NCBI GenBank assembly: GCA_031270005.1
Contig: JAISYJ010000137.1
Span: 34,087-98,086 of the forward strand
DNA: 64,000 bases
Direction of reading: 5' to 3'
Origin: Hungatella sp.
GTDB taxonomy: Bacteria > Bacillota > Clostridia > Lachnospirales > Lachnospiraceae
In this document: positions 6,461-35,762 of the stretch, one piece after another
Layout: every line of letters begins with the position of its first letter
Position numbering within the stretch: position 1 is the stretch's first letter
Translations under genes and position numbers: made by a program
The notes under the pieces: generated by a model
Database searches by the model: none
The model's input: only the letters and a program-made list of their open reading frames with translations
What the model was told of the DNA's origin: nothing

Positions 6461-6592
6461 TATGCCAAAAAGCATGGGCAGGAAAGAGGAACGCCCTTCG
6501 GGCATACCTTTATGCCTAAAAGCACGGGCAGGAAAGAGGAACGCCCTTCGGGCATACCTTTATGCCCAGAAAGCATGGGGCAGGAAAGAGGA
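6461..6592 (+). repeat. Family-1 junction repeat: tandem array (partial copy plus two full ~50-bp copies)
   Basis: ACGCCCTTCGGGCATACCTTTATGCC(T/C)A(A/G)AAGCA(C/T)GGG(G)CAGGAAAGAGGA at 6491 and 6541; 3' half-copy at 6461. Confidence 0.95.
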
Positions 6593-6633
6593 AAGGAATG
6601 TGCGCCGGGAGCGTGCATGGAACGGAGGTAGCA

Positions 6634-8004
6634 ATGGTAAATATGACAGTAAAAGAAATACTTTCAGCCACGGGAGGTAAGCTTCTTTGCGGAAATGAGG
6701 ATACGGTTCTGGACCACATCAGCATTGACTCCAGAAATATGAAGGGGAATGACCTGTTTGTCCCCATCATTGGAGAAAGGCAAGATGCCCATCATTTTAT
6801 CGGGCAGGCCTTTGACAATGGAGCAACGGCGGTGCTTACCAGCGAGCATGACGCTATGGACGACTTTAAACCGTGGATCCGGGTAGAGGATACAAAAAAG
6901 GCTCTTCAAGCCATTGGAAGCTATTACAGGGACTGCTTAAAGCTTCCCCTGGTGGGAATCACGGGAAGCGTGGGAAAGACCACTACAAGGGAGATGGTTG
7001 CCTGTGCCCTGTCTGCCCGTTATTCCGTTTATAAAACTCCTGGAAACCATAACAGCCAGGTAGGAGTGCCTATTACCATATCTGAGATTTCACCGGAGGA
7101 TGAAATCGGAGTCATTGAACTGGGAATGAGCGAGCCGGGAGAACTGACCGTCATCGCCAGGATCGCAAAAATCCAGATGGCTGTGATAACCAATATCGGA
7201 GTAACCCATATCGAGCAGCTTGGATCCCAGGAAAACATCTACAGAGAAAAACTGACTATCCAGGATGGGCTAATGGAAGGCGGAATCCTCTTTTTAAATG
7301 GGGATGACCCGCTTTTAAAAACCACAAAAGCAAAGGAAGGCTGTAAGACCATTTATTACGGAACAGAAGATAATTGTGATTACAGGGCTGAAGATGTTCA
7401 TTTGGAGGATGGTTTTCCGGCCTTTACGGCAGTCTTTGGACAGAAGAGAGTTTCTTTGCGGCTGGCAGTAATGGGAAGCCATAATGTGTTAAATGCTATG
7501 GTGTCCCTTGCAGTGGCTTCTGAGTGCGGCATCCCTATGGAAGAAGCGGCAGAATGTCTCCAGAAATTTACCGGTTTTAAGAACCGGCAGCAGATCTATC
7601 ATACAGCCGGTATGACCATCATCGATGATACATATAACGCCAGCCCGGTTTCCATGAAAGCAGGACTGGAGGTCCTGGGTTCTATTAAAAAGGCGGAACG
7701 AAGGATCGCCGTATTGGCTGATATGAAGGAGCTGGGAGAAAAAACACGGTCATACCATTATGAAATCGGAGAATACATTACAGAGCATCCAGTATATGAG
7801 GTAGTGACTTTGGGAGAGCTGGCAGGGGAGATCGCCAGAGCGGTGAAGGAACATGCTCCTCATATCCTGGTTAAGGAATTCATGGAACCAGAACTGCTGG
7901 TATCTTATTTAAAAGAGGAATTAAAGGAAGGGGACTGCGTGCTGTTTAAGGGCTCCAACAGCATGAATCTTGGCCCGGTCGCGGAGAAATTTTACCGGCC
8001 TTGA
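6634..8004 (+). CDS. murF: UDP-N-acetylmuramoyl-tripeptide--D-alanyl-D-alanine ligase
   Basis: GITGSVGKTTT, HNSQVG, ELGMS, IDDTYNASP, DMKELG, KGS motifs. Start placed at ATG 6634 after GGAGG (6624-6628); the upstream part of the track ORF is repeat-derived. Confidence 0.95.
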   Translation: MVNMTVKEILSATGGKLLCGNEDTVLDHISIDSRNMKGNDLFVPIIGERQDAHHFIGQAFDNGATAVLTSEHDAMDDFKPWIRVEDTKKALQAIGSYYRDCLKLPLVGITGSVGKTTTREMVACALSARYSVYKTPGNHNSQVGVPITISEISPEDEIGVIELGMSEPGELTVIARIAKIQMAVITNIGVTHIEQLGSQENIYREKLTIQDGLMEGGILFLNGDDPLLKTTKAKEGCKTIYYGTEDNCDYRAEDVHLEDGFPAFTAVFGQKRVSLRLAVMGSHNVLNAMVSLAVASECGIPMEEAAECLQKFTGFKNRQQIYHTAGMTIIDDTYNASPVSMKAGLEVLGSIKKAERRIAVLADMKELGEKTRSYHYEIGEYITEHPVYEVVTLGELAGEIARAVKEHAPHILVKEFMEPELLVSYLKEELKEGDCVLFKGSNSMNLGPVAEKFYRP

Positions 8005-8034
8005 CAGCCTTTTAGAGCCCATGGCACTAATGGT

Positions 8035-8154
8035 GCAGGTATACCTTTCCGCCCGATAAAGCGGGCGGGCTTTGCCCGAAAGGCGTGGACAGAAAAGAGG
8101 AAACACTCTTCGAGTATACCGTTATGCCCAAAAAGCATGGGCAGAAAAGAGGAA
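8035..8154 (+). repeat. Family-1 junction repeat: long variant plus standard copy
   Basis: GCAGGTATACCTTTCCGCCCGATAAAGCGGGCGGGCTTTGCCCGAAAGGCGTGGACAGAAAAGAGGAA followed by ACACTCTTCGAGTATACCGTTATGCCCAAAAAGCATGGGCAGAAAAGAGGAA. Confidence 0.9.
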
Positions 8155-8158
8155 AACA

Positions 8159-10387
8159 ATGACGGAACGATTTGCCCGGATTATTATTGATATTTCCCAT
8201 GAAAAGGTTGACAGAACCTTTGATTACCGGATTCCGGCCGGACTTCTTGATGAAGTGGCTGTAGGTACTCTGGTTTTGATTCCTTTTGGAAAAGGGAATT
8301 CCATGCGGAAGGGGTATGTGGTCGGAATTGCCGCCCATGCGGATTATGATCCGGATAAAATTAAGGAGATAGCGGGAATCGTAACAGACGGCGTATCGGC
8401 AGAATCCCTGCTCATCTCCCTGGCATGGTGGCTGAAAGAGCGGTATGGCTCCACCATGAACCAGGCATTAAAAACAGTGCTTCCTGTGAAGCAAAAGGTA
8501 AAGCCAAGGGAAAAAAAGGTGCTTAAAAGCCTTTTGGACCATTCCCAGCTTTTAAATGCCTTAGAGGAAGCGGAAAAAAAGAAATACAAGGCCAGGGCAC
8601 GCCTCTTTCAGGCGCTTTTGGAGAATCCGGCCATTCCATACGAAATTGCGGTTAATCAGATGAACCTTTCTGCCGCCACCTTAAAGCCGGTTATTGAAAA
8701 AGGATACGTAAGCCTTGAATGTGAAGAGGTTTACAGAAATCCTGTTAAAACAGAAATAAAAGAAAGAAGCAAGGTGGTTTTAAACGGAGAACAGCAGGCG
8801 ATTGTAGACAGTTTTTGCCTGGATTATTCCAATAATATAAGAAAAACCTATCTGATCCACGGCATTACAGGAAGCGGCAAGACAGAAGTTTACATGGAAC
8901 TGATCCAAAAGGTCATAGAGGATGGAAAACAGGTGATTGTTCTCATTCCGGAAATTGCCCTGACTTATCAGACCGTCCTGCGTTTCTATGGAAGATTTGG
9001 GAACCGGGTGTCCATAATCAATTCCAGATTGTCGGCAGGGGAACGGTATGACCAGTTTGAACGGGCAAGAAACGGGGATATTGATATTATGATCGGTCCC
9101 CGTTCGGCCCTGTTTACGCCCTTTTCCCGTCTTGGACTGATACTCATAGACGAAGAGCATGAAGGAGCTTACAAAAGCGAGGTATCTCCAAGATACCATG
9201 CCAGGGAGGTGGCTGTGAAAAGAGCCTCCATGCAGGGGGCATCTTTGGTTTTAGGCTCGGCGACTCCCTCTCTGGAAGCTTATACAAAAGCCCTTCAGGG
9301 AGAATACCAGCTTTTTCGCCTGACGGAAAGGGCCAAAAAAAACAGCCGTCTGGCGGCAGTATCCGTGGTGGATTTAAGGCAGGAGCTTAAGGAAGGCAAT
9401 AAGTCCATTTTCAGCAGAAGCTTACAGGCGCTGATCGAGGACCGGCTGGAGAAGCGGGAACAGGCCATGTTATTTATCAACAGGCGCGGCTATGCGAATT
9501 TTGTGTCCTGCCGTTCCTGCGGAGAAGCCATTCGCTGCCCTCACTGTGATGTGACTCTGACACTTCATAATAACAGCCGACTTGTCTGCCATTATTGCGG
9601 ATATTCCATATCCATGCCTGACCGCTGTCCGGCCTGCGGCTCTCCCTACATTGCCAATTTTGGAGTGGGAACCCAGAAGATTGAACAAATGACCAGAAAA
9701 ATGTTTCCGGCTGCCAGAGTCCTGCGAATGGATCTGGACACCACCTCAAAAAAGGGAGGACATGAAGAGATACTCACTGCTTTTTCAGAAGGAGAGGCCG
9801 ACATCCTTATCGGCACCCAGATGATCGTAAAAGGGCATGATTTTCCAAATGTGACCCTGGTAGGAGTGCTGGCTGCAGACCTGTCTTTGAATACTCCGGA
9901 CTACCGGTCTGGAGAACGGACCTTTCAGCTTTTGACCCAGGCGGCAGGAAGGGCTGGCCGGGATTTTCGAAGCGGTGACGTGGTCATTCAGACCTATAGT
10001 CCGGAACACTACAGCATTGTGACCGCTGCCAATCAGGATTATGAGGCATTTTACCGGCAGGAAATGGCATATCGCCGTCTGATGAAATATCCTCCGGCAA
10101 GCGGCCTGTTAACAGTACAGTTTTCTTCCAGACTGGAAGACTGTTTGAAAGAAACAGCAGATGCGGCTGCCGGGTTTATCGGCCCCTTTGCGGAACAGGA
10201 AGCGGTGCAGATCATCGGCCCGGTAGAGGCTACTGTTTACAAAATTAATGATATCTATAGAAAAATTTTATACTTGAAACAGGAAAACTATGATATACTA
10301 ATAAAAATCAGGGATCAGATCGACGGTTTTTCAGAAAACTATGGGCACCTGTTTGATCAGGTAATGATCCAATACGATTTTTCATAA
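8159..10387 (+). CDS. priA: Primosomal protein N' (replication restart helicase)
   Basis: GITGSGKT, DEEH, four CxxC pairs (CRSC/CPHC/CHYC/CPAC), QAAGRAGR. Start at ATG 8159 (MTERFARIII). Confidence 0.97.
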   Translation: MTERFARIIIDISHEKVDRTFDYRIPAGLLDEVAVGTLVLIPFGKGNSMRKGYVVGIAAHADYDPDKIKEIAGIVTDGVSAESLLISLAWWLKERYGSTMNQALKTVLPVKQKVKPREKKVLKSLLDHSQLLNALEEAEKKKYKARARLFQALLENPAIPYEIAVNQMNLSAATLKPVIEKGYVSLECEEVYRNPVKTEIKERSKVVLNGEQQAIVDSFCLDYSNNIRKTYLIHGITGSGKTEVYMELIQKVIEDGKQVIVLIPEIALTYQTVLRFYGRFGNRVSIINSRLSAGERYDQFERARNGDIDIMIGPRSALFTPFSRLGLILIDEEHEGAYKSEVSPRYHAREVAVKRASMQGASLVLGSATPSLEAYTKALQGEYQLFRLTERAKKNSRLAAVSVVDLRQELKEGNKSIFSRSLQALIEDRLEKREQAMLFINRRGYANFVSCRSCGEAIRCPHCDVTLTLHNNSRLVCHYCGYSISMPDRCPACGSPYIANFGVGTQKIEQMTRKMFPAARVLRMDLDTTSKKGGHEEILTAFSEGEADILIGTQMIVKGHDFPNVTLVGVLAADLSLNTPDYRSGERTFQLLTQAAGRAGRDFRSGDVVIQTYSPEHYSIVTAANQDYEAFYRQEMAYRRLMKYPPASGLLTVQFSSRLEDCLKETADAAAGFIGPFAEQEAVQIIGPVEATVYKINDIYRKILYLKQENYDILIKIRDQIDGFSENYGHLFDQVMIQYDFS

Positions 10388-10397
10388 ATGAGAAGAT

Positions 10398-10448
10398 ACA
10401 CCCTTCGGGTATACCTTTATGCCCGGAAAGCATAGGTAGGAAAGAGGA
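10398..10448 (+). repeat. Family-1 junction repeat, single copy
   Basis: ACACCCTTCGGGTATACCTTTATGCCCGGAAAGCATAGGTAGGAAAGAGGA fills most of the priA-def gap. Confidence 0.92.
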
Positions 10449-10457
10449 TAAAAGAAA

Positions 10458-10949
10458 ATGGCAATTAGAAAGATCAGAACCATTGGAGATGAAATTTTAA
10501 GAAAACACTGCAAGCCTGTAAAGGAAATCACACCAAGGATCAGCGAGCTGATCGTGGATATGTTTGAGACCATGTATGACTCGTGCGGAGTTGGCCTTGC
10601 AGCTTCCCAGGTGGGGATTTTAAAACAGATCGTAGTCATAGATGTAGATGATGGCAACCAATATGTACTTATTAATCCGGAAATCATGGAGACAAGGGGA
10701 AGCCAGACCGGGCCGGAAGGCTGCCTTAGTGTGCCTGGAAAATCCGGTACGGTCACAAGGCCTGATTACGTAAAAGTAAAGGCTTATGATGCTGCCATGG
10801 AGCCGTTTGAGTTGGAAGGGGAAGGATTTTTGGCCAGGGCAATCTGTCATGAATGTGATCATTTAAACGGTGATCTCTATGTGGATATCGTGGAAGGCGA
10901 GCTGGAGGATGTCTCCTTAGATGAGGAAGAAGGAGAGGTTGAAGAATAA
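10458..10949 (+). CDS. def: Peptide deformylase
   Basis: GVGLAASQVG, EGCLS, HECDH motifs. Confidence 0.97.
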   Translation: MAIRKIRTIGDEILRKHCKPVKEITPRISELIVDMFETMYDSCGVGLAASQVGILKQIVVIDVDDGNQYVLINPEIMETRGSQTGPEGCLSVPGKSGTVTRPDYVKVKAYDAAMEPFELEGEGFLARAICHECDHLNGDLYVDIVEGELEDVSLDEEEGEVEE

Positions 10950-10951
10950 TT

Positions 10952-11986
10952 ATGCGTATCATATTTATGGGAACACCTGATTTTTCTGTTCCCGCTCTTG
11001 AGGCTTTAAAAGAGGCCGGGCATGAAATTCTTGCGGTAGTTACCCAGCCGGACAAACCCAAAGGAAGAGGGAAGGAAATCCAGATGACTCCGGTAAAGGA
11101 GAAAGCAATGGAATACCACATCCCTGTTTATCAGCCAGTCAAGGCCAGGGATCCGGAATTTGTTAAAATTCTATCAGATCTGGAACCGGAACTGATCGTA
11201 GTAATTGCTTTTGGACAGATTCTGCCAAAGGCGATTCTGGATATTCCAAAATATGGATGTGTGAATATCCATGCATCTCTGCTCCCTAAATACCGTGGCG
11301 CATCTCCCATACAGTATGCGGTCATTAACGGGGAAAAGGAAAGCGGGGTCACGATCATGATGATGGCGGAAACCCTGGATACCGGAGATATGCTGGATCA
11401 GGAAGCCATTGCTTTAGATAAAAAAGAAACCTTCGGAAGCCTTCATGATAAGCTGAGCAGTCTGGGAAGCAGGCTTATTTTGAAAACCATAATAAAGCTG
11501 GAAGAAGGGACTGCCGTACGTACGCCTCAGGATGATTTAAAGACCTGCTACGTAGGCATGATAAAAAAGTCCATGGGAGATATTGACTGGTCCATGGATG
11601 CAGTATCCATTGAACGCCTGATCCGCGGCTTAAATCCATGGCCCAGTGCTTATACTGTCTGGAATGGAAAAGTGATGAAACTGTGGGAAGCAGAGGTAGT
11701 GGATAAAGAGTATGAGGGGGCTTACGGCCAGGTAGTAGAGGCTGGCCGGGACTCTCTGGTCATAAAGACCGGGAAAGGCAGCCTGTCCATACGAAAACTT
11801 CAGCTGCAGGGAAAAAAATGCATGGAAATTGATGCATTTCTCCGCGGATACCAGATTGCGGAAGGTACCGTTTTGGAGCGCCTCGCAGGCACATCTTCAT
11901 GCAGCGTGGGCAAGAAAGTGGAACGCCCTGCGGGCATACCTTTATGCCCAGAAAGCGTGGGCAAGAAAGTGGAAAGGAGAATCTGA
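10952..11986 (+). CDS. fmt: Methionyl-tRNA formyltransferase with repeat-derived ~35-aa C-terminal extension
   Basis: MRIIFMGTPDFS, NIHASLLPKYRGASP, RGLNPWP motifs; the last ~35 codons run through two family-1 repeats. Confidence 0.96.
   Translation: MRIIFMGTPDFSVPALEALKEAGHEILAVVTQPDKPKGRGKEIQMTPVKEKAMEYHIPVYQPVKARDPEFVKILSDLEPELIVVIAFGQILPKAILDIPKYGCVNIHASLLPKYRGASPIQYAVINGEKESGVTIMMMAETLDTGDMLDQEAIALDKKETFGSLHDKLSSLGSRLILKTIIKLEEGTAVRTPQDDLKTCYVGMIKKSMGDIDWSMDAVSIERLIRGLNPWPSAYTVWNGKVMKLWEAEVVDKEYEGAYGQVVEAGRDSLVIKTGKGSLSIRKLQLQGKKCMEIDAFLRGYQIAEGTVLERLAGTSSCSVGKKVERPAGIPLCPESVGKKVERRI
11878..11974 (+). repeat. Family-1 junction repeat: two tandem copies inside the fmt 3' end
   Basis: GCGCCTCGCAGGCACATCTTCATGCAGCGTGGGCAAGAAAGTGGA and ACGCCCTGCGGGCATACCTTTATGCCCAGAAAGCGTGGGCAAGAAAGTGGAA. 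Confidence 0.9.
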
Positions 11987-11988
11987 TT

Positions 11989-12705
11989 ATGTATTATGGC
12001 GGCATGATGGGATATTATTGGGATCCGACCTGGATCCTTGTCATCATTGGAGCAGTTCTTTCCATGGTGGCATCTGCAAGGGTGAATAGTACATTTAATA
12101 AATATTCAAAAGTGAGAAGTATGTCCGGGATGACAGGAGCAGAAGCGGCAAAACGCCTTTTAAATTCCCAGGGCATTTATGATGTTCAGGTAAGGTCTGT
12201 AGGCGGGCAGCTTACGGATCATTATGATCCAAGAACCAAAACCGTTAATCTGTCGGATTCTGTTTACGGCTCCACATCAGTGGCGGCAATCGGTGTTGCG
12301 GCTCATGAATGCGGTCATGTTATGCAGGACAGCACAGGCTATATTCCCTTAAAACTCCGGGCAGCCATTGTTCCTGCGGCCAATATTGGCTCCAAGGCAG
12401 CACTGCCTCTCATTATTCTCGGCGTCATTATAGGGGGAATCGGTTCTCCCTTAGTTAATATCGGCCTGATCCTTTTTTCTGTGGCGGTTATTTTCCAGCT
12501 GGTCACCCTGCCTGTGGAATTTAATGCGTCCAGCCGGGCGGTCACTCTTTTGGGCCAGGTGGGAATCTTAGGCGATCAGGAGTTAGGTTATACCAGAAAA
12601 GTTCTGGGGGCTGCAGCCCTTACCTATGTAGCGGCGCTTGCTGCGACCGTACTTCAGCTTTTAAGGCTGGTTATCTTGTTCGGAGGAAGAAGGAATGATG
12701 ACTAA
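11989..12705 (+). CDS. YugP-family membrane zinc metallopeptidase
   Basis: LTDHYDPR, AAHECGH (HExxH), LPVEFNASSRA, AAALTYVAA motifs; start ATG 11989 after AAGGAG. Confidence 0.9.
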   Translation: MYYGGMMGYYWDPTWILVIIGAVLSMVASARVNSTFNKYSKVRSMSGMTGAEAAKRLLNSQGIYDVQVRSVGGQLTDHYDPRTKTVNLSDSVYGSTSVAAIGVAAHECGHVMQDSTGYIPLKLRAAIVPAANIGSKAALPLIILGVIIGGIGSPLVNIGLILFSVAVIFQLVTLPVEFNASSRAVTLLGQVGILGDQELGYTRKVLGAAALTYVAALAATVLQLLRLVILFGGRRNDD

Positions 12706-14026
12706 GGAGACCGACAGCAGGGAAATTGCCCTGGATATCCTGTTAGAGATCCTGGAGCGAGGAGGCTACAGCCATATCATCCTGCGCCAGGCTTTAAATA
12801 AATATCAGTATCTGGATAAATCGGAACGGGCCTTTATTTCCAGGATAGCAGAAGGAACTGTGGAATACCTGCTTCAGATCGATTATATCATTGATTCCTT
12901 TTCCAACACAAAGGTTAAAAAGATGAAGCCGGTAATACGCACGATTCTGCGCATGTCGGTTTATCAGCTTCTTTATATGGACCGTGTTCCGGATTCCGCC
13001 GTATGCAACGAAGCGGTGAAGCTTGCCGTGAAACGGAAATTTACAGGATTAAAGGGCTTTGTCAATGGGGTACTGAGGAATATTTCCAGAAATAAAGAGG
13101 GCTTAAGCTGGCCGGATGATTCTGTCCGTTATTCCATGCCGGCATGGATCGTATCCATGTGGGAGGAAAGTTTTGGCCGGGAAACGGCAGTCACCATGAT
13201 GGAGTCCTTTTTAAAGGATAAAAAAACTACGGTCCGCTGCAATTTTGCAAAGGCTTCCAAGGAAGAAATCCTTAAAAGCCTTAAAAAGCAGGGGGCAGAA
13301 GTGAGTGAGTCCGGAATTTCGGAAGCAGTGCTTTGCATTGAAAAATATGATTACCTGGAAGGACTGGAAGCATTCCAAAAGGGGTATATCCAGGTTCAGG
13401 ATCTAAGCTCCAGCTTTGTAGGTGAGATCGCAGATCCGAAAAAGGGAGATTACGTCATTGACGTATGCGGCGCTCCTGGAGGAAAGAGCATTCATATAGC
13501 AGATAAGCTTGACGGAACAGGCATGGTGGAGGTCCGTGACTTAAGCTTCCAAAAGATAAGCATGGTTGAGGAAAATATTAAACGGTGCGGATTTTCAAAT
13601 ATCCGTACAAAGGTCCAGGACGCTCTTGCTGCAGATCCGGATTCAGTGGAAAAAGCGGACATTGTTATTGCTGACCTGCCTTGCTCCGGGCTTGGGATCA
13701 TCGGACGAAAGCCGGATATCAAATACCGTATGACGCCGGAAGACTTGGAATCCCTGGCAGCGCTCCAACGGGAGATTCTGGCAGTTATCCAGGCATATGT
13801 AAAACCGGGCGGGCGTCTGATTTTCAGTACATGTACCATAAACAGAAAAGAAAATGAAGAAAATGCCCAGTGGTTCCTTGAGCATTTTCCTTTTGACTGC
13901 ATAAGACTAAAGGGAAAGTTTGGAGAAAAGATGGATTCAGCCGCTGCGAACCAGGAATTTTTACAGCTTTTGCCGGGAATCCATCCCTGTGACGGATTTT
14001 TTATTGCGGCATTTCAAAAAAGGTAG
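12695..14026 (+). CDS. rsmB: 16S rRNA m5C967 methyltransferase
   Basis: N-terminal NusB-like domain; VQDLSS, DVCGAPGGKS, DLPCSGLG, FSTCT motifs. Confidence 0.95.
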   Translation: MMTKETDSREIALDILLEILERGGYSHIILRQALNKYQYLDKSERAFISRIAEGTVEYLLQIDYIIDSFSNTKVKKMKPVIRTILRMSVYQLLYMDRVPDSAVCNEAVKLAVKRKFTGLKGFVNGVLRNISRNKEGLSWPDDSVRYSMPAWIVSMWEESFGRETAVTMMESFLKDKKTTVRCNFAKASKEEILKSLKKQGAEVSESGISEAVLCIEKYDYLEGLEAFQKGYIQVQDLSSSFVGEIADPKKGDYVIDVCGAPGGKSIHIADKLDGTGMVEVRDLSFQKISMVEENIKRCGFSNIRTKVQDALAADPDSVEKADIVIADLPCSGLGIIGRKPDIKYRMTPEDLESLAALQREILAVIQAYVKPGGRLIFSTCTINRKENEENAQWFLEHFPFDCIRLKGKFGEKMDSAAANQEFLQLLPGIHPCDGFFIAAFQKR

Positions 14027-14077
14027 GGCCTTCAAGGCATACCTTTATGCCCAAAAAACGTGGGCAGAATAGAGGAA
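14027..14077 (+). repeat. Family-1 junction repeat, single copy
   Basis: GGCCTTCAAGGCATACCTTTATGCCCAAAAAACGTGGGCAGAATAGAGGAA fills the rsmB-rlmN gap. Confidence 0.9.
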
Positions 14078-14084
14078 ATATAGA

Positions 14085-15158
14085 ATGGATAAGATAGATA
14101 TAAAATCTCTGGATATGGAACACCTGATATCCTATATGGTGTCCATAGGAGAAAAGCCCTTCCGTGCAAAGCAGCTTTATGAATGGATGCACCAGAAGCT
14201 GGCTTCTGATTTTGATGAGATGACCAATCTTCCTAAATCGCTGAAAGAAAAGCTTTTGCAGCTTACAGAATTTACCTGCCTTACAGTCGTAGAGGAAAAG
14301 ATTTCAAAAATAGATGGAACAAGAAAATACTTATTTGCCCTTTCCGATGGAAATGTGATTGAAAGCGTTTTGATGAAATACAAACATGGAAATTCTGTCT
14401 GCATTTCATCCCAGGTAGGCTGCCGCATGGGCTGCCGGTTCTGTGCTTCCACACTTGACGGACTGGAAAGGAATTTAACTCCTTCTGAAATGCTTGACCA
14501 GATATACCGGATCCAAAAGATCACCGGGGAGCGGGTTTCCAATGTGGTGGTCATGGGATCCGGAGAACCTATGGATAATTATGATCATCTGGTTCAGTTC
14601 ATTCGTTTACTTACTGATGAAAACGGCCTGAATATCAGCCAGCGTAACATAACGGTGTCCACCTGCGGCATTGTTCCGGGAATTCTTCGACTGGCTGAAG
14701 AAGATTTACAGATCACTCTGGCTTTGTCTCTTCATGCACCAAATGACGAAGTCAGAAAAACCCTGATGCCTGTTGCCAACCGTTACCCCCTAAAAGAGGT
14801 GTTGGATGCCTGCCAGACGTATTTTGAAAAGACAGGGCGAAGGCTTACCTTTGAATACAGCCTTGTAAGCGGTGTCAATGATAATTTAAAAGAGGCAGCC
14901 GCCCTGACTGCTCTTATAAAAGGCCAGCACGGGCATGTGAATCTGATTCCGGTAAATCCTATTAAGGAGCGCAATTACGTGCAGTCAGACCGGAAGGCCA
15001 TAGAAGCCTTTAAAAATCTTCTTGAAAAAAATGGAATAAATGTTACTATAAGAAGAGAAATGGGACGGGATATTAACGGCGCCTGCGGGCAGCTGAGAAA
15101 AAGCTTTTTAACCGACTCAGGGAAGTCCCCCGCTTCAAATGCGCGGAGCATTAATTAG
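14085..15158 (+). CDS. rlmN: 23S rRNA m2A2503/tRNA m2A37 radical-SAM methyltransferase
   Basis: CISSQVGCRMGCRFCAS, MGSGEP, SLHA, ACGQL motifs. Confidence 0.97.
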   Translation: MDKIDIKSLDMEHLISYMVSIGEKPFRAKQLYEWMHQKLASDFDEMTNLPKSLKEKLLQLTEFTCLTVVEEKISKIDGTRKYLFALSDGNVIESVLMKYKHGNSVCISSQVGCRMGCRFCASTLDGLERNLTPSEMLDQIYRIQKITGERVSNVVVMGSGEPMDNYDHLVQFIRLLTDENGLNISQRNITVSTCGIVPGILRLAEEDLQITLALSLHAPNDEVRKTLMPVANRYPLKEVLDACQTYFEKTGRRLTFEYSLVSGVNDNLKEAAALTALIKGQHGHVNLIPVNPIKERNYVQSDRKAIEAFKNLLEKNGINVTIRREMGRDINGACGQLRKSFLTDSGKSPASNARSIN

Positions 15159-15206
15159 TGGGTAGGGGACTTGCCTGTATCAGGTGGAACTTGTACTCCA
15201 CCTGAT
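15123..15206. repeat. Two adjacent stem-loops at the rlmN 3' end; the first resembles an IS200/IS605-type end remnant
   Basis: AAGTCCCC...GGGGACTT enclosing AATGC-GCGGA-GCATT; then perfect TATCAGGTGGA-ACTTGTAC-TCCACCTGATA. Confidence 0.55.
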
Positions 15207-15297
15207 AAGCAGCAATCGCTGCTATTTGGTTATGCCCGGTGGAGCGGGGGCACGCTGTGAGCAAGTAGGGTCGCGGATTACTAATATCCGCTTGATA
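15207..15297 (+). repeat. Family-2 hairpin repeat (long form)
   Basis: AAGCAGCAATCGCTGCTATTTGGTTATGCCCGGTGGAGCGGGGGCACGCTGTGAGCAAGTAGGGTCGCGGATTACTAATATCCGCTTGA; closely matches 28694-28780. Confidence 0.9.
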
Positions 15298-15328
15298 TCA
15301 GAAGTGAAGAGGAAGTGAGAATGAAACG

Positions 15329-16072
15329 ATGAAAGCTTGCGCTATGACGGACACAGGAAGAGTCCGTACGGCCAATCAGGATTATGTCTATGCCCAGGCA
15401 GAGCCTTTGGGCACACTGCCCAACCTTTTTTTAGTTGCAGACGGCATGGGCGGTCATCAGGCCGGGGATTACGCCTCCAGATATATTGCTGAAAATCTGG
15501 TGGCTCACTTAAAACAGGCAGATTCGCCGGGGATTGTTCCACTTCTCCGGGAGGGAATCTTAAAGGTCAACGGAATGCTTTACCAGGAATCCTTAAAAAG
15601 TACAGAATTAAACGGCATGGGAACAACCCTGGTGGCAGCAGTGATCGAAGATTCTACCATGTACGTGGCCAATGTGGGAGACAGCCGTTTGTATCTGGTA
15701 AGGAATCGGCTGCAGCAGATCACAAAGGATCATTCCTACGTGGAAGAACTGGTGTCTTTAGGCCAGCTGGAGCGGGGAAGCCGGGATTACCGGGAAAAAA
15801 AGAATATTATAACAAGAGCGGTTGGTACAGAGGATAAGCTGGAGATTGATTTTTTTGAAGTCAGTCTGGAACCGGGGGATTATGTGCTCATGTGTTCCGA
15901 TGGACTCAGCAATATGCTTGAGGACGCTGAGATAGAAGAAATTATATGCTCAGAACTGGAGCTGCCGGAAAAGGCAGAAAAGTTGATTACAATAGCCAAT
16001 GATAATGGCGGAAAAGACAATATAGCTGTTGTTTTAATTGATCCGCAAATTGGCAGGGAGGTAAGCTTATGA
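15329..16072 (+). CDS. prpC: PP2C-family Ser/Thr protein phosphatase (Stp1/PrpC)
   Basis: RTANQD, VADGMGGH, GMGTT, NVGDSR, CSDGL, GGKDNI motifs; overlaps the kinase start (ATGA-type coupling). Confidence 0.93.
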   Translation: MKACAMTDTGRVRTANQDYVYAQAEPLGTLPNLFLVADGMGGHQAGDYASRYIAENLVAHLKQADSPGIVPLLREGILKVNGMLYQESLKSTELNGMGTTLVAAVIEDSTMYVANVGDSRLYLVRNRLQQITKDHSYVEELVSLGQLERGSRDYREKKNIITRAVGTEDKLEIDFFEVSLEPGDYVLMCSDGLSNMLEDAEIEEIICSELELPEKAEKLITIANDNGGKDNIAVVLIDPQIGREVSL

Positions 16073-18228
16073 TCTTAAGACCGGGGACATTTTTACAGGA
16101 CAGATATGAAATACTGGACCAGATCGGTTCCGGCGGGATGTCAGATGTATATAAGGCCCTGTGCCATAAATTAAACCGCCCTGTTGCCATAAAGGTCTTG
16201 AAGGAAGAATTCAGTTCAGACAGCGGTTTTGTCAGCAAGTTTAAAATGGAGGCCCAGGCGGCCGCCCGCCTTTCCCATCCCAACATCGTAAATATCTATG
16301 ATGTAGTGGATGAAGGGAATCTTCATTACATTGTTATGGAACTGATTGAAGGAATTACGTTAAAAAATTATATTACAAAAAAAGGCTGTCTTGATGTAAA
16401 AGAAGCAATCGGGGTTGCAATTTCCGTTGCACAGGGAATCGCGGCAGCTCATGAACAGGGAATCATACACCGGGATATTAAGCCTCAGAACATCATCATT
16501 GCCAGGGATGGAAAGGTGAAGGTGGCTGATTTTGGAATCGCCCGGGCAGCTTCCTCCCAGACCTTAAGCGCTACCGCAGTTGGCTCTGTCCATTACATAT
16601 CTCCCGAACAGGCAAGAGGCGGTTACAGCGATGTACGAAGCGATGTCTATTCTCTGGGAATCACCATGTACGAAATGGTGGCTGGCCGGGTCCCGTTTCA
16701 GGGAGATAATACAGTAACCGTTGCCCTGGCCCACTTGGAAGACCCCATAACGCCGCCCAGCTTTTATAATGAGAACATTCCGGTAGGACTTGAGAATATT
16801 ATTTTAAAATGTACCGAGAAAAAGCCGGAATACCGTTATGGAAGTATGCAGGAGGTCATATCCGACTTACGGAAGGCGCTTGTCAATCCTGACGGAGATT
16901 TTGTCCAGTACAATTCCCAGGTGGATGATTCCCAGACGGTCATCATAGGAAAGCCGGAGCTGGAACAGATCCGTTCCGGCCGTAAGGTACAGGCAGATCC
17001 TGTTGTAAACCGGAATGGAAACAGAAATCAGGAACAGCGTCCGGAGCGCCGCCAAGGAAAAAATGCAGGTGCGCAGCCGGGCAGCAGCAGAACCAGAAAA
17101 CAGGATTCTGAGGATGACATCAATCCCAAAATCGAACGGCTTTTGACCGCGGCAGGTGTTATGGTTGCTGTCCTCATTGTGGTCGTACTGGTCATTGTTT
17201 TCTCAAAGGTGGGAGGGTTATTCCGTTCTGGTTCCCCAAAGGAAACCGAATCAACTGCGGAGATTTCCACCGAAGAAACCTTAAGTGACAAAAAGGTGAA
17301 AATGACAAGCGTTGTGGGATTGGCAACGGATATTGCAGAGCAGAAGTTAAAGGACAATGGCGGCCTGTATATGAAGGTAAGCGATTACGTATTTCATGAT
17401 ACCATAGACAAGGGCGATATCGTGTCCCAGGACCCGGCTGAAGGGACTGTGATTGATAAGTATTCTGCGGTCTACGTAGTGGTCAGCAAGGGACCGGAGC
17501 ACGCAACCATTGACTTAACAAAGCTTGGACTTGAAAAGATGGATGGCACTTCTGCCAAAGCAGTACTGGAGGGCAATGGCCTGACAGTCAATGTGGAGCA
17601 GAAGAACAGCGAAACCGTTGTGTCAGGATATGTAATCAGCTATACCCCCGATGCGGCAAAAGAAGGTGAAACCGTAACTCTGGTTTTAAGCAGTGGTCCG
17701 GCTCTTGTCAATCCGGTCACGGTTCCGGATATTACCGGCCAGACTCAGGAGATTGCTGTGGAGATGCTGGCTGACGTGGGACTGGTACAGGGAACGGTTA
17801 CAGAAGCAGCCTCTGAGACAGTATTAAGGGGCAGTGTTATCAGCCAGTCCTTAACCGCTAACAGCCAGGTAGAGTCAGGAACTGCCGTGAATTATGTTAT
17901 CAGCAGCGGAACTGCCCAACAGTCCAAAGTCAAGTATCTGGCTTCTATTGAAAAGTCTTATCCCTTGCAAAACATTATCGGACCAGGCTCCGGCAGCACC
18001 CAGCTTACCTTAAAGATACAACTGAAGCAATCGGTAAATGGAAAAGACGAAATCAGAGAGCTTATGGGACCTGTTACCATGGCAGGCGACCAGGTGCTTC
18101 CTGTATCATTTAAAAATATTGAAGGCGCTTATGGCATTTCAAGCGGTACCGTAGAGATTGTAAATGTGGAGACTGGCGATGTGATTAATTCTTATGTCAT
18201 CACATTTATTCCGGTGCCACAATCGTAA
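16069..18228 (+). CDS. pknB: PASTA-domain Ser/Thr kinase (PknB/PrkC/Stk1)
   Basis: IGSGGMSDVY, HRDIKPQN, DFGIAR, GSVHYISPE; one TM segment; about three PASTA repeats. Confidence 0.96.
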   Translation: MILRPGTFLQDRYEILDQIGSGGMSDVYKALCHKLNRPVAIKVLKEEFSSDSGFVSKFKMEAQAAARLSHPNIVNIYDVVDEGNLHYIVMELIEGITLKNYITKKGCLDVKEAIGVAISVAQGIAAAHEQGIIHRDIKPQNIIIARDGKVKVADFGIARAASSQTLSATAVGSVHYISPEQARGGYSDVRSDVYSLGITMYEMVAGRVPFQGDNTVTVALAHLEDPITPPSFYNENIPVGLENIILKCTEKKPEYRYGSMQEVISDLRKALVNPDGDFVQYNSQVDDSQTVIIGKPELEQIRSGRKVQADPVVNRNGNRNQEQRPERRQGKNAGAQPGSSRTRKQDSEDDINPKIERLLTAAGVMVAVLIVVVLVIVFSKVGGLFRSGSPKETESTAEISTEETLSDKKVKMTSVVGLATDIAEQKLKDNGGLYMKVSDYVFHDTIDKGDIVSQDPAEGTVIDKYSAVYVVVSKGPEHATIDLTKLGLEKMDGTSAKAVLEGNGLTVNVEQKNSETVVSGYVISYTPDAAKEGETVTLVLSSGPALVNPVTVPDITGQTQEIAVEMLADVGLVQGTVTEAASETVLRGSVISQSLTANSQVESGTAVNYVISSGTAQQSKVKYLASIEKSYPLQNIIGPGSGSTQLTLKIQLKQSVNGKDEIRELMGPVTMAGDQVLPVSFKNIEGAYGISSGTVEIVNVETGDVINSYVITFIPVPQS

Positions 18229-18232
18229 GAAA

Positions 18233-18308
18233 ACACCCTGCGGGCATACCTTTACGCCCGATAAAGCGGGGCGAGTTTTGCCCAGAAAGCATGGGCAGGA
18301 AAAAGGAA
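18233..18308 (+). repeat. Family-1 junction repeat, long variant
   Basis: ACACCCTGCGGGCATACCTTTACGCCCGATAAAGCGGGGCGAGTTTTGCCCAGAAAGCATGGGCAGGAAAAAGGAA fills the pknB-rsgA gap. Confidence 0.92.
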
Positions 18309-18313
18309 AGTAT

Positions 18314-19192: not shown

Positions 19193-19193
19193 T

Positions 19194-19856
19194 ATGCTTA
19201 AACTTGCCCCTTCCATATTAGCGGCAGACTTTAAAATTCTTGGACAGCAGGTAGCGGAGGTAGCAGAGGCAGGTGCCCAGTACATTCATCTGGATGTGAT
19301 GGATGGTGCATTTGTGCCCAGCATTTCATTTGGAATGCCGGTTATTGGAAGCCTTCGGGGCTGCACGGACCGGTTTTTCGATGTTCACATGATGGTAGAG
19401 GAACCCGGAAGATATGTAAATGATATCAAAGAAGCGGGAGCTGATCTCATCTGTGTCCATGCGGAAGCCTGCACCCATCTGGACCGCACCATCAATCAGA
19501 TCAAGGAAGCAGGGTTAAAGGCAGGAGTGGCCCTTAATCCTGCGACTCCCTTATCTGTTCTTGACTTAATTCTCCCGGAAGTGGATATGGTTTTAATTAT
19601 GACGGTAAATCCAGGTTTTGGCGGACAAAAATTCATTCCTTATACCCTGGATAAAGTGAGGGCTTTGAGGCGAATCTGCAGGGAACGGAATCTTCAGACG
19701 GATATCCAGGTTGACGGAGGCGTGACTTGTGATAATGTGAGAGAACTGATTGAAGCAGGCGCTAATGTATTTGTGGCCGGTTCAGCCGTGTTTAAAGGAG
19801 ATGCTGCCGCCAATACAAAGGCATTCTTAAAAATATTTGAGGAATATGAAGGGTGA
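19194..19856 (+). CDS. rpe: Ribulose-phosphate 3-epimerase
   Basis: LAPSILAADF, HLDVMDG, DVHMM, MTVNPGFGGQ, VDGG motifs. Confidence 0.97.
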   Translation: MLKLAPSILAADFKILGQQVAEVAEAGAQYIHLDVMDGAFVPSISFGMPVIGSLRGCTDRFFDVHMMVEEPGRYVNDIKEAGADLICVHAEACTHLDRTINQIKEAGLKAGVALNPATPLSVLDLILPEVDMVLIMTVNPGFGGQKFIPYTLDKVRALRRICRERNLQTDIQVDGGVTCDNVRELIEAGANVFVAGSAVFKGDAAANTKAFLKIFEEYEG

Positions 19857-23550: not shown

Positions 23551-23601
23551 GTCAAATGGATATTCCCAATCCGCGGCTCTGCCTGCTTGATCCGGTTAAA
23601 A
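23550..23601 (-). repeat. Family-2 hairpin repeat (short form)
   Basis: Reverse complement: TTTTAACCGGATCAAGCAGGCAGAGCCGCGGATTGGGAATATCCATTTGACA. Confidence 0.85.
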
Positions 23602-24840: not shown

Positions 24841-24888
24841 TGTTACGCGGATATTCCCAATCCGCTATGCTGCTTGATTCGGTTAAAA
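24841..24888 (-). repeat. Family-2 hairpin repeat (short form)
   Basis: Reverse complement: TTTTAACCGAATCAAGCAGCATAGCGGATTGGGAATATCCGCGTAACA. Confidence 0.85.
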
Positions 24889-27948: not shown

Positions 27949-28695
27949 ATGAATTATCACATATTAACCCTGTTTCCTGAGATGGTCCTAAACGGCCTCC
28001 ACACCAGCATTATCGGAAGAGCGGCAGAAAAGGGCCTGCTTTCCATTGAAGCCATTGATATCCGGGAATATTCAACAGACAAACACCGCCATGTGGATGA
28101 TTATCCTTATGGAGGCGGAGCCGGAATGGTCATGCAGCCCATGCCGATCTGTGAAGCCTATGATGACTTGTGTGAGAAAATCGGGAAAAAGCCCCGGGTT
28201 ATTTACATGACTCCTCAGGGAAGGGTTTTTAACCAGAGAATTGCAGAGGATCTGGCAAAGGAAGAAGACCTTGTTTTTCTATGCGGTCATTATGAAGGAA
28301 TTGATGAGAGAGCTTTGGAGCTTGTTGCCACGGATTATCTTTCCATTGGCGACTATGTGCTGACAGGTGGCGAGCTTCCGGCCATGGTAATGATTGACTG
28401 CATTTCCCGTCTGATTCCAGGGGTCTTAAACAACGATACCTCTGCAGAATTTGAATCCTTTCACGATAACCTACTGGAATATCCCCAGTATACCAGGCCG
28501 GAAGAGTACAGGGGGCTTAAGGTTCCTGATATCCTTTTATCCGGTCATCATAAAAATATCGATGCCTGGAGAAGGGAACAATCCATTAAGCGGACCCTGG
28601 AACGCAGGCCGGATCTTCTGGCAGATGCCAACCTGTCGAAAAAAGAAGCGGAATATTTAAAAAAGCTTGAAAATGAGCAGGAAAAACAGGAATAA
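27949..28695 (+). CDS. trmD: tRNA (guanine-37-N1)-methyltransferase
   Basis: VDDYPYGGGAGM, CGHYEGIDER, SIGDYVLTGGE, YPQYTRP, LLSGHH. Confidence 0.98.
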   Translation: MNYHILTLFPEMVLNGLHTSIIGRAAEKGLLSIEAIDIREYSTDKHRHVDDYPYGGGAGMVMQPMPICEAYDDLCEKIGKKPRVIYMTPQGRVFNQRIAEDLAKEEDLVFLCGHYEGIDERALELVATDYLSIGDYVLTGGELPAMVMIDCISRLIPGVLNNDTSAEFESFHDNLLEYPQYTRPEEYRGLKVPDILLSGHHKNIDAWRREQSIKRTLERRPDLLADANLSKKEAEYLKKLENEQEKQE

Positions 28696-28780
28696 GCAAT
28701 AGCAGCTATTCGGTTATGCCCGGTGGAGCGGGGCAGGCTGTGAGCAAGTAGGGTGGCGGATTGCAAATATCCGCTTGACA
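28694..28780 (+). repeat. Family-2 hairpin repeat (long form)
   Basis: AAGCAATAGCAGCTATTCGGTTATGCCCGGTGGAGCGGGGCAGGCTGTGAGCAAGTAGGGTGGCGGATTGCAAATATCCGCTTGACA. Confidence 0.9.
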
Positions 28781-34094: not shown

Positions 34095-34161
34095 GACAAA
34101 GATTCCTCCATAATAAATCAACAGCCAGTCGTAAGACTGCCTGCTTTTAATCTTACACCCT

Positions 34162-34191
34162 TTTATACCATTGAATGACAGAATGCGTCAA
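34162..34191 (-). promoter_or_regulatory. Promoter for prs
   Basis: Minus strand: TTGACG, 18 bp, TG-G-TATAAA. Confidence 0.55.
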
Positions 34192-34234
34192 TAGCTTCGG
34201 TCGTATTTCCAGGAAAAAAACAAAAAAGGCTTCC

Positions 34235-34263
34235 TTTACAAAGAGTAACAATCTTGTTATGAT
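34235..34263 (+). promoter_or_regulatory. Promoter for the DUF512-der-plsY-gpsA operon
   Basis: TTTACA (34235-40), 17 bp, TG-T-TATGAT (34258-63). Confidence 0.65.
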
Positions 34264-34295
34264 ATATGGGACAGCTACAGAAAGGTAAAATTAAG

Positions 34296-35762
34296 ATGAG
34301 CAAAAGAGGACATATCATAAAAGAAGTTGATTCCGGCTCCATAGCAGATCAGCTGGAACTGGAGCCAGGGGATACGGTCCTGTCCATAGATGGTCATGAA
34401 CTGGAAGACATTTTTGATTATGAGTATTACATTAACAGCGAGTCCATTCTCATGACCGTGAAAAAAAAAGACGGGGAAGAATGGGAGCTGGAAATAGAAA
34501 ACCAATACGAGGATCTGGGTATTACCTTTGAAAACGGACTCATGAGTGAATACAGATCCTGCCGGAATAAATGCATTTTCTGCTTTATAGACCAGATGCC
34601 CCCTGGAATGAGAGAAACCCTGTATTTTAAGGATGACGATTCCAGGCTTTCCTTTTTGCAGGGGAACTACGTGACGCTGACTAACATGAGCGATCATGAC
34701 ATTGACCGCATCATAAAGTTTAAGCTGGCACCGATCAACATTTCCGTTCATACGACCAATCCTGCTTTAAGGTGTGAGATGCTTCACAACCGGTTTGCAG
34801 GCCAAGCCCTGGATAAGATCAAGAGGCTGTATGAGGCAGGGATCCCGATGAACGGACAGATTGTGCTTTGCAAGGGCGTGAATGACGGAAAGGAGCTGGA
34901 GAGGACCATAAAGGATTTATCAGAATACCTTCCGTATATGGAGAGTGTATCCGCCGTCCCTGTTGGAATGTCAAAATACCGGGATGGCCTGTATCCTTTA
35001 CAGCCCTTTACAGCTGAAGATGCAAAAGAGATCGTGGAGATCATCGGACGATGGCAGAAAAAGCTTTTTAAAACCCATGGAACCCATTTCATTCATGCCA
35101 GTGACGAGCTTTATATCCTGGCGGGGCTGCCTTTTCCGGAAGAGAGCCGTTACGACGGATATATTCAGCTGGAAAACGGCGTAGGCATGCTGCGGCTTTT
35201 GGATGAGGAGATTAAGGCCGCTCTGGAAACCATGGAAGACGACCATAAGTCTGAAGAAATCTCAATCGCAACAGGCAGGCTTGCTGCTCCTTATATTGAA
35301 AGACATGCAAAAATGGTACAGGAAAAATTTCCAGGGCGGGTCATTCACGTTTATGCTATTACCAATGTCTTTTTCGGGGAGCAAATCACAGTGGCAGGCT
35401 TAATCACCGGCCAGGATTTAATCGGACAGCTTAAGGGACAGGCACTGGGCAGACGGTTATTGCTTCCGGAATGTATGTTCCGAAGCGGAGAAGAGGTATT
35501 TCTTGATGACCTGACCCGCCAGGATGTACAAAATGCTTTACAAGTACAGGTAGATATTGTAAAATCAAGCGGTCAGGATTTTGTACAGGCAGTTCTTGAG
35601 CCGGTAGAAGAGAGTGAAGCTTCTTATGAAGCATATGAGTTAAACACCCTTGCGGGTATACCTTTATGCCCGGAAAACATGGGCGAGGGAGAGAAATACC
35701 CTTCGGGTATATCTTTATGCCAAAAAAGCATGGGCAAAGAGGAGAAAGGAAATATTATATGA
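34296..35762 (+). CDS. PDZ + DUF512 putative radical-SAM protein (TIGR03279-like) with repeat-derived C-terminal extension
   Basis: N-terminal PDZ-like region; CRNKCIFC (CxxxCxxC), [23 protein letters not shown]; conserved position upstream of der. Confidence 0.88.
35644..35746 (+). repeat. Family-1 junction repeat: two tandem copies inside the DUF512 gene 3' end
   Basis: ACACCCTTGCGGGTATACCTTTATGCCCGGAAAACATGGGCGAGGGAGAGAA and ATACCCTTCGGGTATATCTTTATGCCAAAAAAGCATGGGCAAAGAGGAGAA. Confidence 0.92.

Follow-up and report, generated by a model that had tools for sequence, protein, structure and literature searches.

Small dispersed repeats are common in bacteria, yet for most of them neither the means of movement nor the reason for their tolerance has been settled. 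A functional sequence that resembles a ribosome-binding site need not precede a gene, as illustrated by the STAB-SD of Bacillus, an mRNA stabiliser made of a Shine-Dalgarno (SD)-like sequence that has no start codon after it and is situated close to the 5' portion of a stretch of transcript. STAB-SD is one functional site, however, rather than a dispersed repeat. Among the repeats proper, MIRU elements are thought to be mobile and to insert in a manner that keeps the downstream gene expressed (PMC12548453), while pneumococcal BOX elements show only a mild orientation bias that mirrors the coding strand (PMC3049150). The Lacrimispora repeat described here appears to be an unusually clear case of tolerance by design, in that it probably lands on a ribosome-binding site and leaves one behind.

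Results

Anatomy of the unit and its copies in the window

The unit is ~52 bases long and contains two covarying hairpins. On the sense strand the first hairpin (H1) reads RCCC-TKC-GGGY and the second (H3) UGCCCA-GAAAGCA-UGGGCA, with a conserved linker, AUACCUUUA, between them and a purine tail, GGAAAGAGGAAA, at the end. The two hairpins have GCCC/GGGC stems in common and lie subterminally in direct orientation, and the left part of the unit is the variable H1 loop. Terminal inverted repeats were not found, as the left end CACCCTGC agrees with TTCCTGC, the reverse complement of the right end, at 5/7 bases.

In the window, the whole 64-kb stretch that was analysed, the core GGGYATACCTTTATGCCC has 10 matches when up to 3 mismatches are allowed, all on the plus strand, compared with 0.12 expected from shuffles (0/100 shuffles reached 10 matches). 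A repeat finder recovered the same family, with 11-12 copies. All 13 copies listed by the sequence-only reading could be located on the plus strand to within ~3 nt (eight junctions read), and each of the six H1 variants that it quoted is present exactly. Ten of the 13 are well formed, counting the 5'-truncated copy at 6461 and the long variant at 18233, and three are degenerate (8033-8103, 11879-11923 and 21204-21238). The copies and the left repeat of the priA/def insertion are as follows.

6461..6491, plus strand: first unit of the murE/murF array, 5'-truncated to H3 and the purine tail
6492..6541, plus strand: murE/murF, unit 2 of the array, full-length at 50 nt
6542..6593, plus strand: full unit 3 of the murE/murF array, which is one unit shorter in G002
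8033..8103, plus strand: murF/priA, degenerate long variant with the extra hairpin CGCCC-GATAAAGCG-GGCGG
8104..8156, plus strand: murF/priA, full short unit whose tail GAGGAAAA lies 2 nt 5' of the priA ATG (8159)
10391..10398, plus strand: left direct repeat AGAAGATA at priA/def, the native def SD region
10399..10450, plus strand: priA/def, full unit of 52 nt whose last bases (10443-10450) form the right direct repeat AGAGGATA
11879..11923, plus strand: degenerate unit within the 3' end of the fmt reading frame
11924..11975, plus strand: fmt/Zn-peptidase, full unit through which the fmt frame reads (stop 11984-11986)
14027..14078, plus strand: rsmB/rlmN, full unit directly 3' of the TAG stop, tail 6 nt before the ATG (14085)
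18234..18310, plus strand: pknB/rsgA, long variant of 76-77 nt, missing from the closest fmt-locus relatives L039/L003/L004
21204..21238, plus strand: ECF-S/pdxK, unit from which 16 internal nt have been deleted between repeated TGC; the G002 unit is intact
35645..35696, plus strand: unit 1 of the DUF512/der array
35697..35747, plus strand: unit 2 of the DUF512/der array, tail upstream of the der ATG (35759)

Pfam agrees with the housekeeping neighbours that had been named from the sequence (MurF, PriA, Zn peptidase, ECF-S, PdxK-like kinase, RsgA, DUF512 and Der). The proposed placement at stop/start junctions does not strictly apply to two of the arrays, since two units each are traversed by the fmt frame (10952..11986) and by the DUF512 frame (34266..35762). 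The units are an annotation hazard, creating false start codons and ORF extensions, as in fmt and DUF512. In the unit at 11924..11975, which G002 lacks, the tail adjoins the GGAG that serves the Zn-peptidase gene (ATG 11989) as native SD, and the priA/def unit ends 7 nt before the def ATG (10458).

Abundance, range and novelty

The 4.6-Mb Lacrimispora genome to which the window belongs holds ~169 copies at 132 loci, and a covariance-model search of the same genome returned 144 copies. Matches occur in all 24 Lacrimispora genomes (24/24), ranging from 16 to at least 133 each, and the counts differ strongly between species (~16-40 versus ~100 to at least 133). In the 16 genomes tested that represent other families of the order there is no match, and a 32-nt pattern gave 0 matches in viral contigs. 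As far as tested, the repeat is confined to the genus Lacrimispora (Lachnospiraceae).

The suspicion that this is an undescribed REP/BOX-like family was upheld, in that neither an Rfam match, even at E<=10, nor a description in the literature was found. Rfam 15 has no match in the 64-kb window at the gathering score, and the 7 weak matches obtained at E<=10 over 6300-21400 do not coincide with the plus-strand element; one of them overlaps the 14027 copy on the opposite strand. Searches of the literature on Lacrimispora repeats, SD-linked MITEs and clostridial stem-loop repeats brought up no account of the family, and a 2024 review of prokaryotic MITEs does not mention an element linked to ribosome-binding sites.

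Copies precede start codons

The repeat obeys a positional rule: it lies 0-15 nt upstream of a start codon, in operons and leaders alike. A long ORF starts within 80 nt downstream on the same strand for 154 of the 169 copies (20 in the antisense control), and at the fmt-region loci the gene strand carries 57/57 copies. A preference for intra-operon junctions, as suggested from the window, was rejected, since the upstream gene is co-directional at 77% of the loci compared with 79.5% for all genes (p=0.51). The spacing from tail to start is bimodal, with one class at 0-5 nt, in which the GAGG of the tail is the SD, and another at 9-14 nt, in which the tail is fused to a native GGAG, so that the purine tail either is the SD itself or adjoins it. 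Arrays in this genome are head-to-tail only. Copies lengthen intercistronic spacers by 50-150 nt. Coupling through an internal ORF of the MIRU type was considered and rejected, as the stop of the internal ATG frame has no fixed position relative to the gene start (range -61 to more than +1500 nt), with frames distributed 37/31/27.

It is conceivable that the repeat is a host cis-regulatory RNA module, with H1/H3 and an orphan SD-like tract being useful in the mRNA, although we regard this as rather unlikely. Possible effects of such a module include protection of the downstream cistron from 5'-to-3' decay, a processing mark, or tuning of translation via CCUUU-SD pairing. That nearly all copies are in sense orientation and directly upstream of start codons argues for it, but copies also exist in coding sequence (rsmB, fmt), and the insertion at C50:25034 has no gene downstream on that strand.

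Hairpins covary, individual copies drift

The earlier claim of hairpin covariation proved right for H1 and H3: they pair at 95-96%, with 7 pairs changed on both sides, which shuffles rarely or never match, and the covariation found in this genome was found again in other species. The linker is strongly conserved and lies outside the covarying pairs. An overlapping middle hairpin (H2) was discarded as a conserved alternative fold, since it is 91% pairable and exhibits neither compensatory change nor an excess over shuffles. A regulatory RNA would be consistent with the H1 and H3 covariation, with the greater stability of H1+H3 over H2 in 39/49 copies and with the minimum-free-energy folds of several copies, in which CCUU pairs with the GAGG of the tail. 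Sequestration of the SD by the CCUUU linker nevertheless had to be abandoned, as this pairing is possible but does not covary and is no better within a copy than with shuffled partners, which speaks against an RNA module, as does the weak sense-strand bias in G.U versus A.C mismatches (63 vs 46). The modular build that had been recognised in the window is real, as long variants carry an extra hairpin, and this 24-nt module comes or goes between genomes at the same orthologous site.

Whether the structure is under selection, as had been surmised, depends on the level considered: it is at the level of the family, but individual copies drift approximately neutrally. Indeed, orthologous copies diverge by 11.2%, close to the 9.3% at third codon positions (genomes ~96% identical), as expected for near-neutral change. 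With 16 orthologous pairs and indel shifts, conservation by column was too noisy to read. Between two genomes that are ~96% identical, length differs at 29/58 loci. Arrays expand and shrink by entire units of 50-53 nt, internal deletions fall between repeated GCCC/GGGC segments, and short and long variants swap at one orthologous site. G002, for example, has a short unit at murF/priA where the window has the degenerate long variant, and the whole murE/murF array is absent from the relatives L002/L004/L035. Copies truncated at the 5' end outnumber those truncated at the 3' end (~9 vs ~2). Neutral drift, and the variable presence and copy number at essential housekeeping junctions between near-identical genomes, are not what a host RNA module would lead one to expect.

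Insertion 3' of a purine heptamer

That the element is insertional, in keeping with the earlier suggestion of a mobile or regulatory element, is supported by orthologous sites that are empty in ~45 relatives, insertion being distinguished from deletion by outgroups only at the fmt-region junctions. Inserts at such sites are 51-53 nt long (76 nt in the long variant) and lie 3' of the purine heptamer RARGAAA, always in the orientation of the heptamer, which in this low-GC Firmicute is mostly part of an SD region. The clearest insertion is at priA/def, where the site is empty in ~45 relatives (15-19-nt spacer) and filled in the window, L039 and G002, the event comprising 52 nt with AGAGGATA on either side. 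In L005 and L008, a 51-nt in-frame insert with AGGGAAA repeats lies in the N-terminal coding region of rsmB. The rsmB/rlmN site is empty, with a 4-12-nt spacer, in L007, L009-L012, L014-L020 and L022, and at pknB/rsgA the insert is the 76-nt long variant. Further empty-site events were seen at C142:13679, C90:14612 and C50:25034, and the insertion at C15:34534 has a 10-nt direct repeat.

The perfect 7-, 8- and 10-nt direct repeats with locus-specific bases at rsmB, priA/def and C15:34534 are reminiscent of a classical MITE on which a DDE transposase with a 7-8-bp staggered cut acts in trans. Identity between left and right flanks exceeds shuffles at positions 1, 2 and 5-7 and falls to background from position 8, and this sharp stop after position 7 likewise favours a DDE enzyme. 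We nonetheless consider a DDE transposase quite improbable. The inverted repeats expected at the termini are absent (5/7 bases at best), the single orientation is strict, most loci have imperfect repeats or none, and the truncations are skewed ~9 to 2 towards the 5' end. An exact flanking repeat of at least 7 nt accompanies 15/85 solo copies (5 expected), with lengths from 7 to 13 and beyond.

Perhaps the repeat is mobilised as single-stranded DNA by an HUH/Y1 enzyme, like IS200/IS605-derived PATEs or REP/RAYT. The tyrosine transposase would bind both GCCC/GGGC hairpins and cut beside (R)GAAA at both ends, with the CCUUU linker 5' of the H3 foot guiding ...AAAGG/GAAA cleavage. Several features point this way: the two direct-oriented subterminal hairpins with one type of stem, the lack of terminal inverted repeats, an orientation that is fixed relative to a short asymmetric target, and a linker that is highly conserved yet outside the covarying pairs. 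More than 90% of solo copies are preceded directly by (G)AAA, and most copies have only GAAA/AAA common to the left flank and the end of the tail, as such chemistry would have it. However, the locus-specific 7-10-nt repeats of some events are not a product of this chemistry, and the left boundary is only 1-2 nt from H1, leaving no room for a left guide. Overall, HUH/Y1 mobilisation seems unlikely to us.

It is also possible that no dedicated enzyme is involved and that copies spread by microhomology-mediated template switching or short-patch gene conversion, with the homology coming from the purine-rich SD tracts that flank each copy and target. Such a process would accommodate a junction overlap that ranges from 0 to 13 nt, a 58-nt insert that carries both purine tracts along, and hybrid junctions such as those of three recent events whose 3' repeat does not copy the target but has the canonical tail sequence. 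The exchanges between short and long forms at one orthologous site, the gain and loss of units, the deletions between GCCC/GGGC repeats and the excess of 5'-truncated copies fit as well. Reaching more than 100 unlinked loci via 4-10 nt of homology would be unusually efficient, however, and neither the H1/H3 covariation nor the species contrast in match counts (~16-40 vs ~100 to at least 133) is explained, making enzyme-free spread improbable in our estimation. Two polymorphic sites, on contigs C5 and C91, show no target duplication when the filled form is compared with the empty one. The linkage of core variants with tail variants gave no border between element and target; it was uninformative because the family has no subfamily structure.

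Search for a mobiliser

In agreement with the sequence-only reading, no transposase occurs among the window ORFs tested with Pfam. The draft genome has no IS-like multi-copy ORF family, and no long element bounded by unit ends (CACCCTGCGGG... and ...GGGCAGGAA) was found, both of which weigh against a DDE transposase acting in trans. In 2.0 Mb of a complete relative, the only repeated segments found were two of 1.8 kb and 2.7 kb that share one site at a distance of ~4 kb and are suspected to be rRNA operons. Nor was a RAYT-like gene found between inverted copies. Those inverted pairs that were examined enclose housekeeping genes such as aspS and hisS, and this counts against an HUH/Y1 enzyme.

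Discussion

Why does the repeat accumulate in front of essential genes? The explanation that we favour, and hold to be probable, is that it is a small non-autonomous insertion element that is tolerated because the SD is restored. The element inserts next to an SD, 3' of RARGAAA and in the orientation of the gene, and a purine tract is then again found at SD distance from the start codon. This tract is the element's own tail and, in some events, also the 7-10-nt copy of the target. Since the downstream gene would keep its ribosome-binding site, insertion should be nearly harmless, and copies would therefore pile up just before start codons, in operons and leaders. It would be on account of the ribosome-binding site left behind that units can precede the essential genes murF, priA, def, rlmN, rsgA and der. 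The hairpin covariation may reflect a structural need for spreading, as single-stranded DNA or RNA, rather more than any role that the host derives from individual loci. Points against the insertion-element explanation are that no mobilising gene was found, that terminal inverted repeats are missing, that exact flanking repeats of at least 7 nt accompany only 15/85 solo copies, that the C5 and C91 sites have no target duplication, and that the 3' repeat of three recent events is the canonical tail. The strict sense orientation, the covariation and the possible CCUU:GAGG pairing are moreover compatible with a function as RNA.

A more daring scenario, which we consider improbable, is that the repeat homes to ribosome-binding sites through its SD-like tail or its anti-SD-like CCUUU linker, recognising them by base pairing or by identity. 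A single-stranded DNA circle might serve as intermediate, or else a SINE-like RNA that is copied at a nicked target. Homing would explain together the fixed orientation, the variable overlap, the 3' repeats that are either target or canonical sequence, and the excess of 5' truncations. If true, it would represent a transposition mode undescribed in bacteria, with the most conserved short motif of their mRNAs as its target.

Irrespective of the mechanism, half of the loci differ in length between ~96% identical genomes, indicating activity on a short time scale. This length variation offers VNTR-like markers for strain typing in Lacrimispora and makes the family a tractable system in which to catch new insertions.

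With REP/BIME and REPIN-RAYT systems the repeat has in common that hairpin repeats of high GC content and high copy number occur in a lower-GC genome of one lineage and are built from mosaic modules. However, REPs are mostly found downstream of genes and as inverted doublets, whereas the Lacrimispora copies lie upstream of starts and are head-to-tail only, and, unlike in REPIN-RAYT, no RAYT-like gene is flanked by inverted copies among the pairs examined. Pneumococcal BOX elements resemble the repeat in their variable number of internal modules, strong RNA structure, narrow clade and lack of a known autonomous partner (PMC3049150), but they possess terminal inverted repeats, are not tied to start codons or to a single orientation, and have no SD-like tail. 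The PATEs of IS200/IS605 likewise have direct-oriented subterminal hairpins, no terminal inverted repeats and orientation-specific insertion 3' of a short target, as observed here, although they are usually longer than 100 nt and make no duplication, while the Lacrimispora events sometimes come with locus-specific 7-10-nt repeats, and no TnpA was identified here. The left purine tract of each Lacrimispora unit resembles STAB-SD in being an orphan SD. MIRU is matched in its ~50-nt units, its variable tandem number, its co-orientation with genes and its location at gene starts or between cistrons. The likeness is one of layout; the phylum differs, and so do the means: MIRU preserves expression via an internal ORF whose stop overlaps the start codon, whereas the Lacrimispora repeat would do so via a restored SD.

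Results

A sequence-only reading of the window had described 13 plus-strand copies of a repeat at eight junctions of housekeeping genes; inspection of these junctions confirmed them all, and the flanking gene identities agree with Pfam. The core GGGYATACCTTTATGCCC (up to three mismatches) has 10 matches in the window against 0.12 expected, every one on the plus strand as claimed, and a repeat finder returns the same family. The unit, here the SD-repeat unit (SD, Shine-Dalgarno), spans about 52 nt and comprises hairpin H1, a linker with CCUUU, hairpin H3 and a purine tail; a 76-nt long variant has an extra hairpin. Degenerate or truncated copies are:

8033-8103, plus strand: degenerate long variant
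11879-11923, plus strand: degenerate copy
21204-21238, plus strand: degenerate copy with an internal deletion
6461-6491, plus strand: 5'-truncated copy, otherwise well formed

The upstream frame reads through two arrays (fmt, 10952..11986; DUF512, 34266..35762). The fmt frame takes in a degenerate unit as well as a full one, stopping 2 nt upstream of the following ATG. Where relatives lack units, the end of Fmt falls within the next gene's native SD (...GAAAGGAGTGTCTGA), so that the unit inserted into the overlapping 3' end of fmt. The DUF512 frame passes through both units and its end overlaps the der ATG, the TAA at 35641-35643 directly before the first unit being out of frame. Between murE and the repeat array, a hairpin (ATGCCGAAAGC...GCTTTCGGCAT, 6408-6447) is conserved in all relatives, units present or not, and may be an attenuator or terminator within the mur cluster.

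A second dispersed family, unrelated to the SD-repeat unit and lacking an Rfam match, has about 75 genomic copies, which occupy both strands. Its consensus is ...TTTAACCGAATCAAGCAG..GCGGATTGCGAATATCCGCTTGAC, with nested inverted repeats TCAAGC/GCTTGA and GCGGAT/ATCCGC, and its optional internal module TTATGCCCGGTGGAGCGGGGCACGCTGTGAGCAAG also occurs in the longest SD-repeat variants. Its copies in the window are:

15211-15295, 28695-28778 and 54129-54151, plus strand: second-family copies
23552-23574 and 24843-24865, minus strand: second-family copies

A nucleotide profile search of the source genome (4.59 Mb, 144 contigs) finds 169 SD-repeat copies spread over 132 loci, of which 97 hold one copy, 33 two and 2 three, and a covariance model finds 144. 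With the model, all 24 other sampled genomes of the genus Lacrimispora give matches, numbering from 16 to at least 133 per genome, in two groups of which the upper counts are lower bounds; 16 genomes representing 16 further families of the order give none, and 26 non-Lacrimispora fmt loci (~20 kb each) contain no SD-repeat match. The sequence had not been recognised as a described family, and indeed neither an Rfam search of the window nor a literature search returned one.

For 154 of the 169 copies, an ORF of 80 aa or more begins no further than 80 nt downstream, in the same orientation (antisense control, 20). The distance from tail end to start codon is bimodal: at 0-5 nt the GAGG of the tail is the SD, and at 9-14 nt the tail continues into a native GGAG. 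The preference for intra-operon junctions proposed from the window is not borne out, since a co-directional upstream gene accompanies 77% of loci versus 79.5% of all genes (p=0.51), indicating no special tie to operon interiors.

In an ungapped 58-column alignment, the top three mutual-information pairs are 6-16 and 9-13 (H1) and 28-42 (H3), so that the covariation noticed in the first hairpin holds and extends to H3. H1 and H3 are 95.9% paired with seven pairs changed on both sides, and 0 of 500 shuffles reach any measure; 78 copies from other species give the same result (95.2% paired, 40 double-changed cells). The overlapping middle hairpin H2, which shares H1's 3' arm and H3's 5' arm, is pairable in 91% of cells but lacks compensatory changes and pairs no better than shuffles, and H1 plus H3 is the more stable in 39 of 49 copies. 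Predicted folds pair the CCUUU linker with the tail, a pairing to which the covariation test gives no support. The excess of G.U over A.C mismatches (63 versus 46) is a weak sign of sense-strand selection.

Comparison with 2.0 Mb of G002, a complete genome sharing 95-98% identity with the source, shows a length difference at 29 of 58 comparable loci. Many differences are whole units (50-53 nt); others are deletions between repeated GCCC/GGGC segments or swaps of short and long variants at one site. Equal-length orthologous copies diverge by 11.2%, whereas 254 genes show divergences of 1.8%, 1.0% and 9.3% at codon positions 1, 2 and 3. Because the copies are more diverged than codon position 3, individual copies are not under purifying selection on this time scale; the suggestion that the structure is under selection thus stands for the family as a whole but not for single copies. 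A host role at the RNA level is possible, but the neutral drift of copies speaks against it, as do insertions that lie outside 5' leaders. In another species (L071:1403-1560), an unrelated 42-nt sequence lies within a unit, between GGGCA and CAGGAAAGAGGAAA.

The earlier reading also called for empty orthologous sites, and the priA/def spacer provides one: it measures 15-19 nt (...TAAATGAGAGGATAAAAGAAAATG) without a unit in about 45 relatives, and carries 52 additional bases, flanked on both sides by AGAGGATA, in the window as well as in the relative closest to it at the fmt locus. At this position G002 bears a long variant, again with this repeat, and the pknB/rsgA event is the 76-nt long variant. 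The first rsmB codons of two related loci, L005 and L008, hold a 51-nt in-frame insert with AGGGAAA repeats, and L003 has an insert of different structure at this site. These rsmB units (L005:11746-11803, L008:11848-11906, L003:11749-11806) mean 17 extra in-frame codons, or a shifted start, in L005 and L008. Further events lie on source contigs at C142:13679, C90:14612, C15:34534 (10-nt repeat) and C50:25034 (no gene downstream on that strand). One copy, at 1537666, is found only in G002; on contig C88, the source counterpart of G002:C1:1537666, a 22-nt purine-rich stretch, AAAAAGAATGATGAAAATCAAG, is instead duplicated in tandem.

Target duplications would fit the repeats at priA/def, rsmB and C15:34534, but two polymorphic sites show none, and just 15 of 85 solo copies (5 expected) have an exact flanking repeat of at least 7 nt. 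Across these 85, identity of the left flank (consensus R-A-R-G-A-A-A) with the copy's own tail is greater at positions 1, 2 and 5-7 than in shuffled pairs, and nowhere beyond. Three recent events have the canonical tail, not the target, as their 3' repeat. Truncation is 5' rather than 3' by about 9 to 2.

Discussion

Insertion adjoins an SD-like heptamer, in one orientation only, and restores an SD-like tract; neutral decay of copies and array dynamics follow. Which machinery moves the unit is a matter of several candidates. Single-strand transposition by an HUH/Y1 enzyme appears unlikely: no gene flanked by inverted SD-repeat copies was found in the source genome, so the linked Y1/HUH (RAYT/TnpA) gene looked for in a RAYT-like layout did not materialise. 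Microhomology-driven copying between SD tracts is rather improbable. A DDE transposase making cuts staggered by 7-8 bp is more doubtful still, as the unit has no terminal inverted repeats and no parent IS or multi-copy transposase was found in the source draft genome and 2.0 Mb of G002, a search that extends the absence of transposases first remarked in the window. An RNA-mediated route may also spread the unit.

The SD-repeat unit is best classed as a small dispersed non-autonomous repeat. It differs from a MITE in lacking terminal inverted repeats, and no parent IS turned up in the sequence searched. Closest in behaviour is MIRU (PMC12548453), although the coupling ORF that defines MIRU is absent, none having been found in SD-repeat units. 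Its modular build is common to BOX and its hairpin layout is like that of PATEs; its unusual property is that the ribosome-binding site is both targeted and regenerated.
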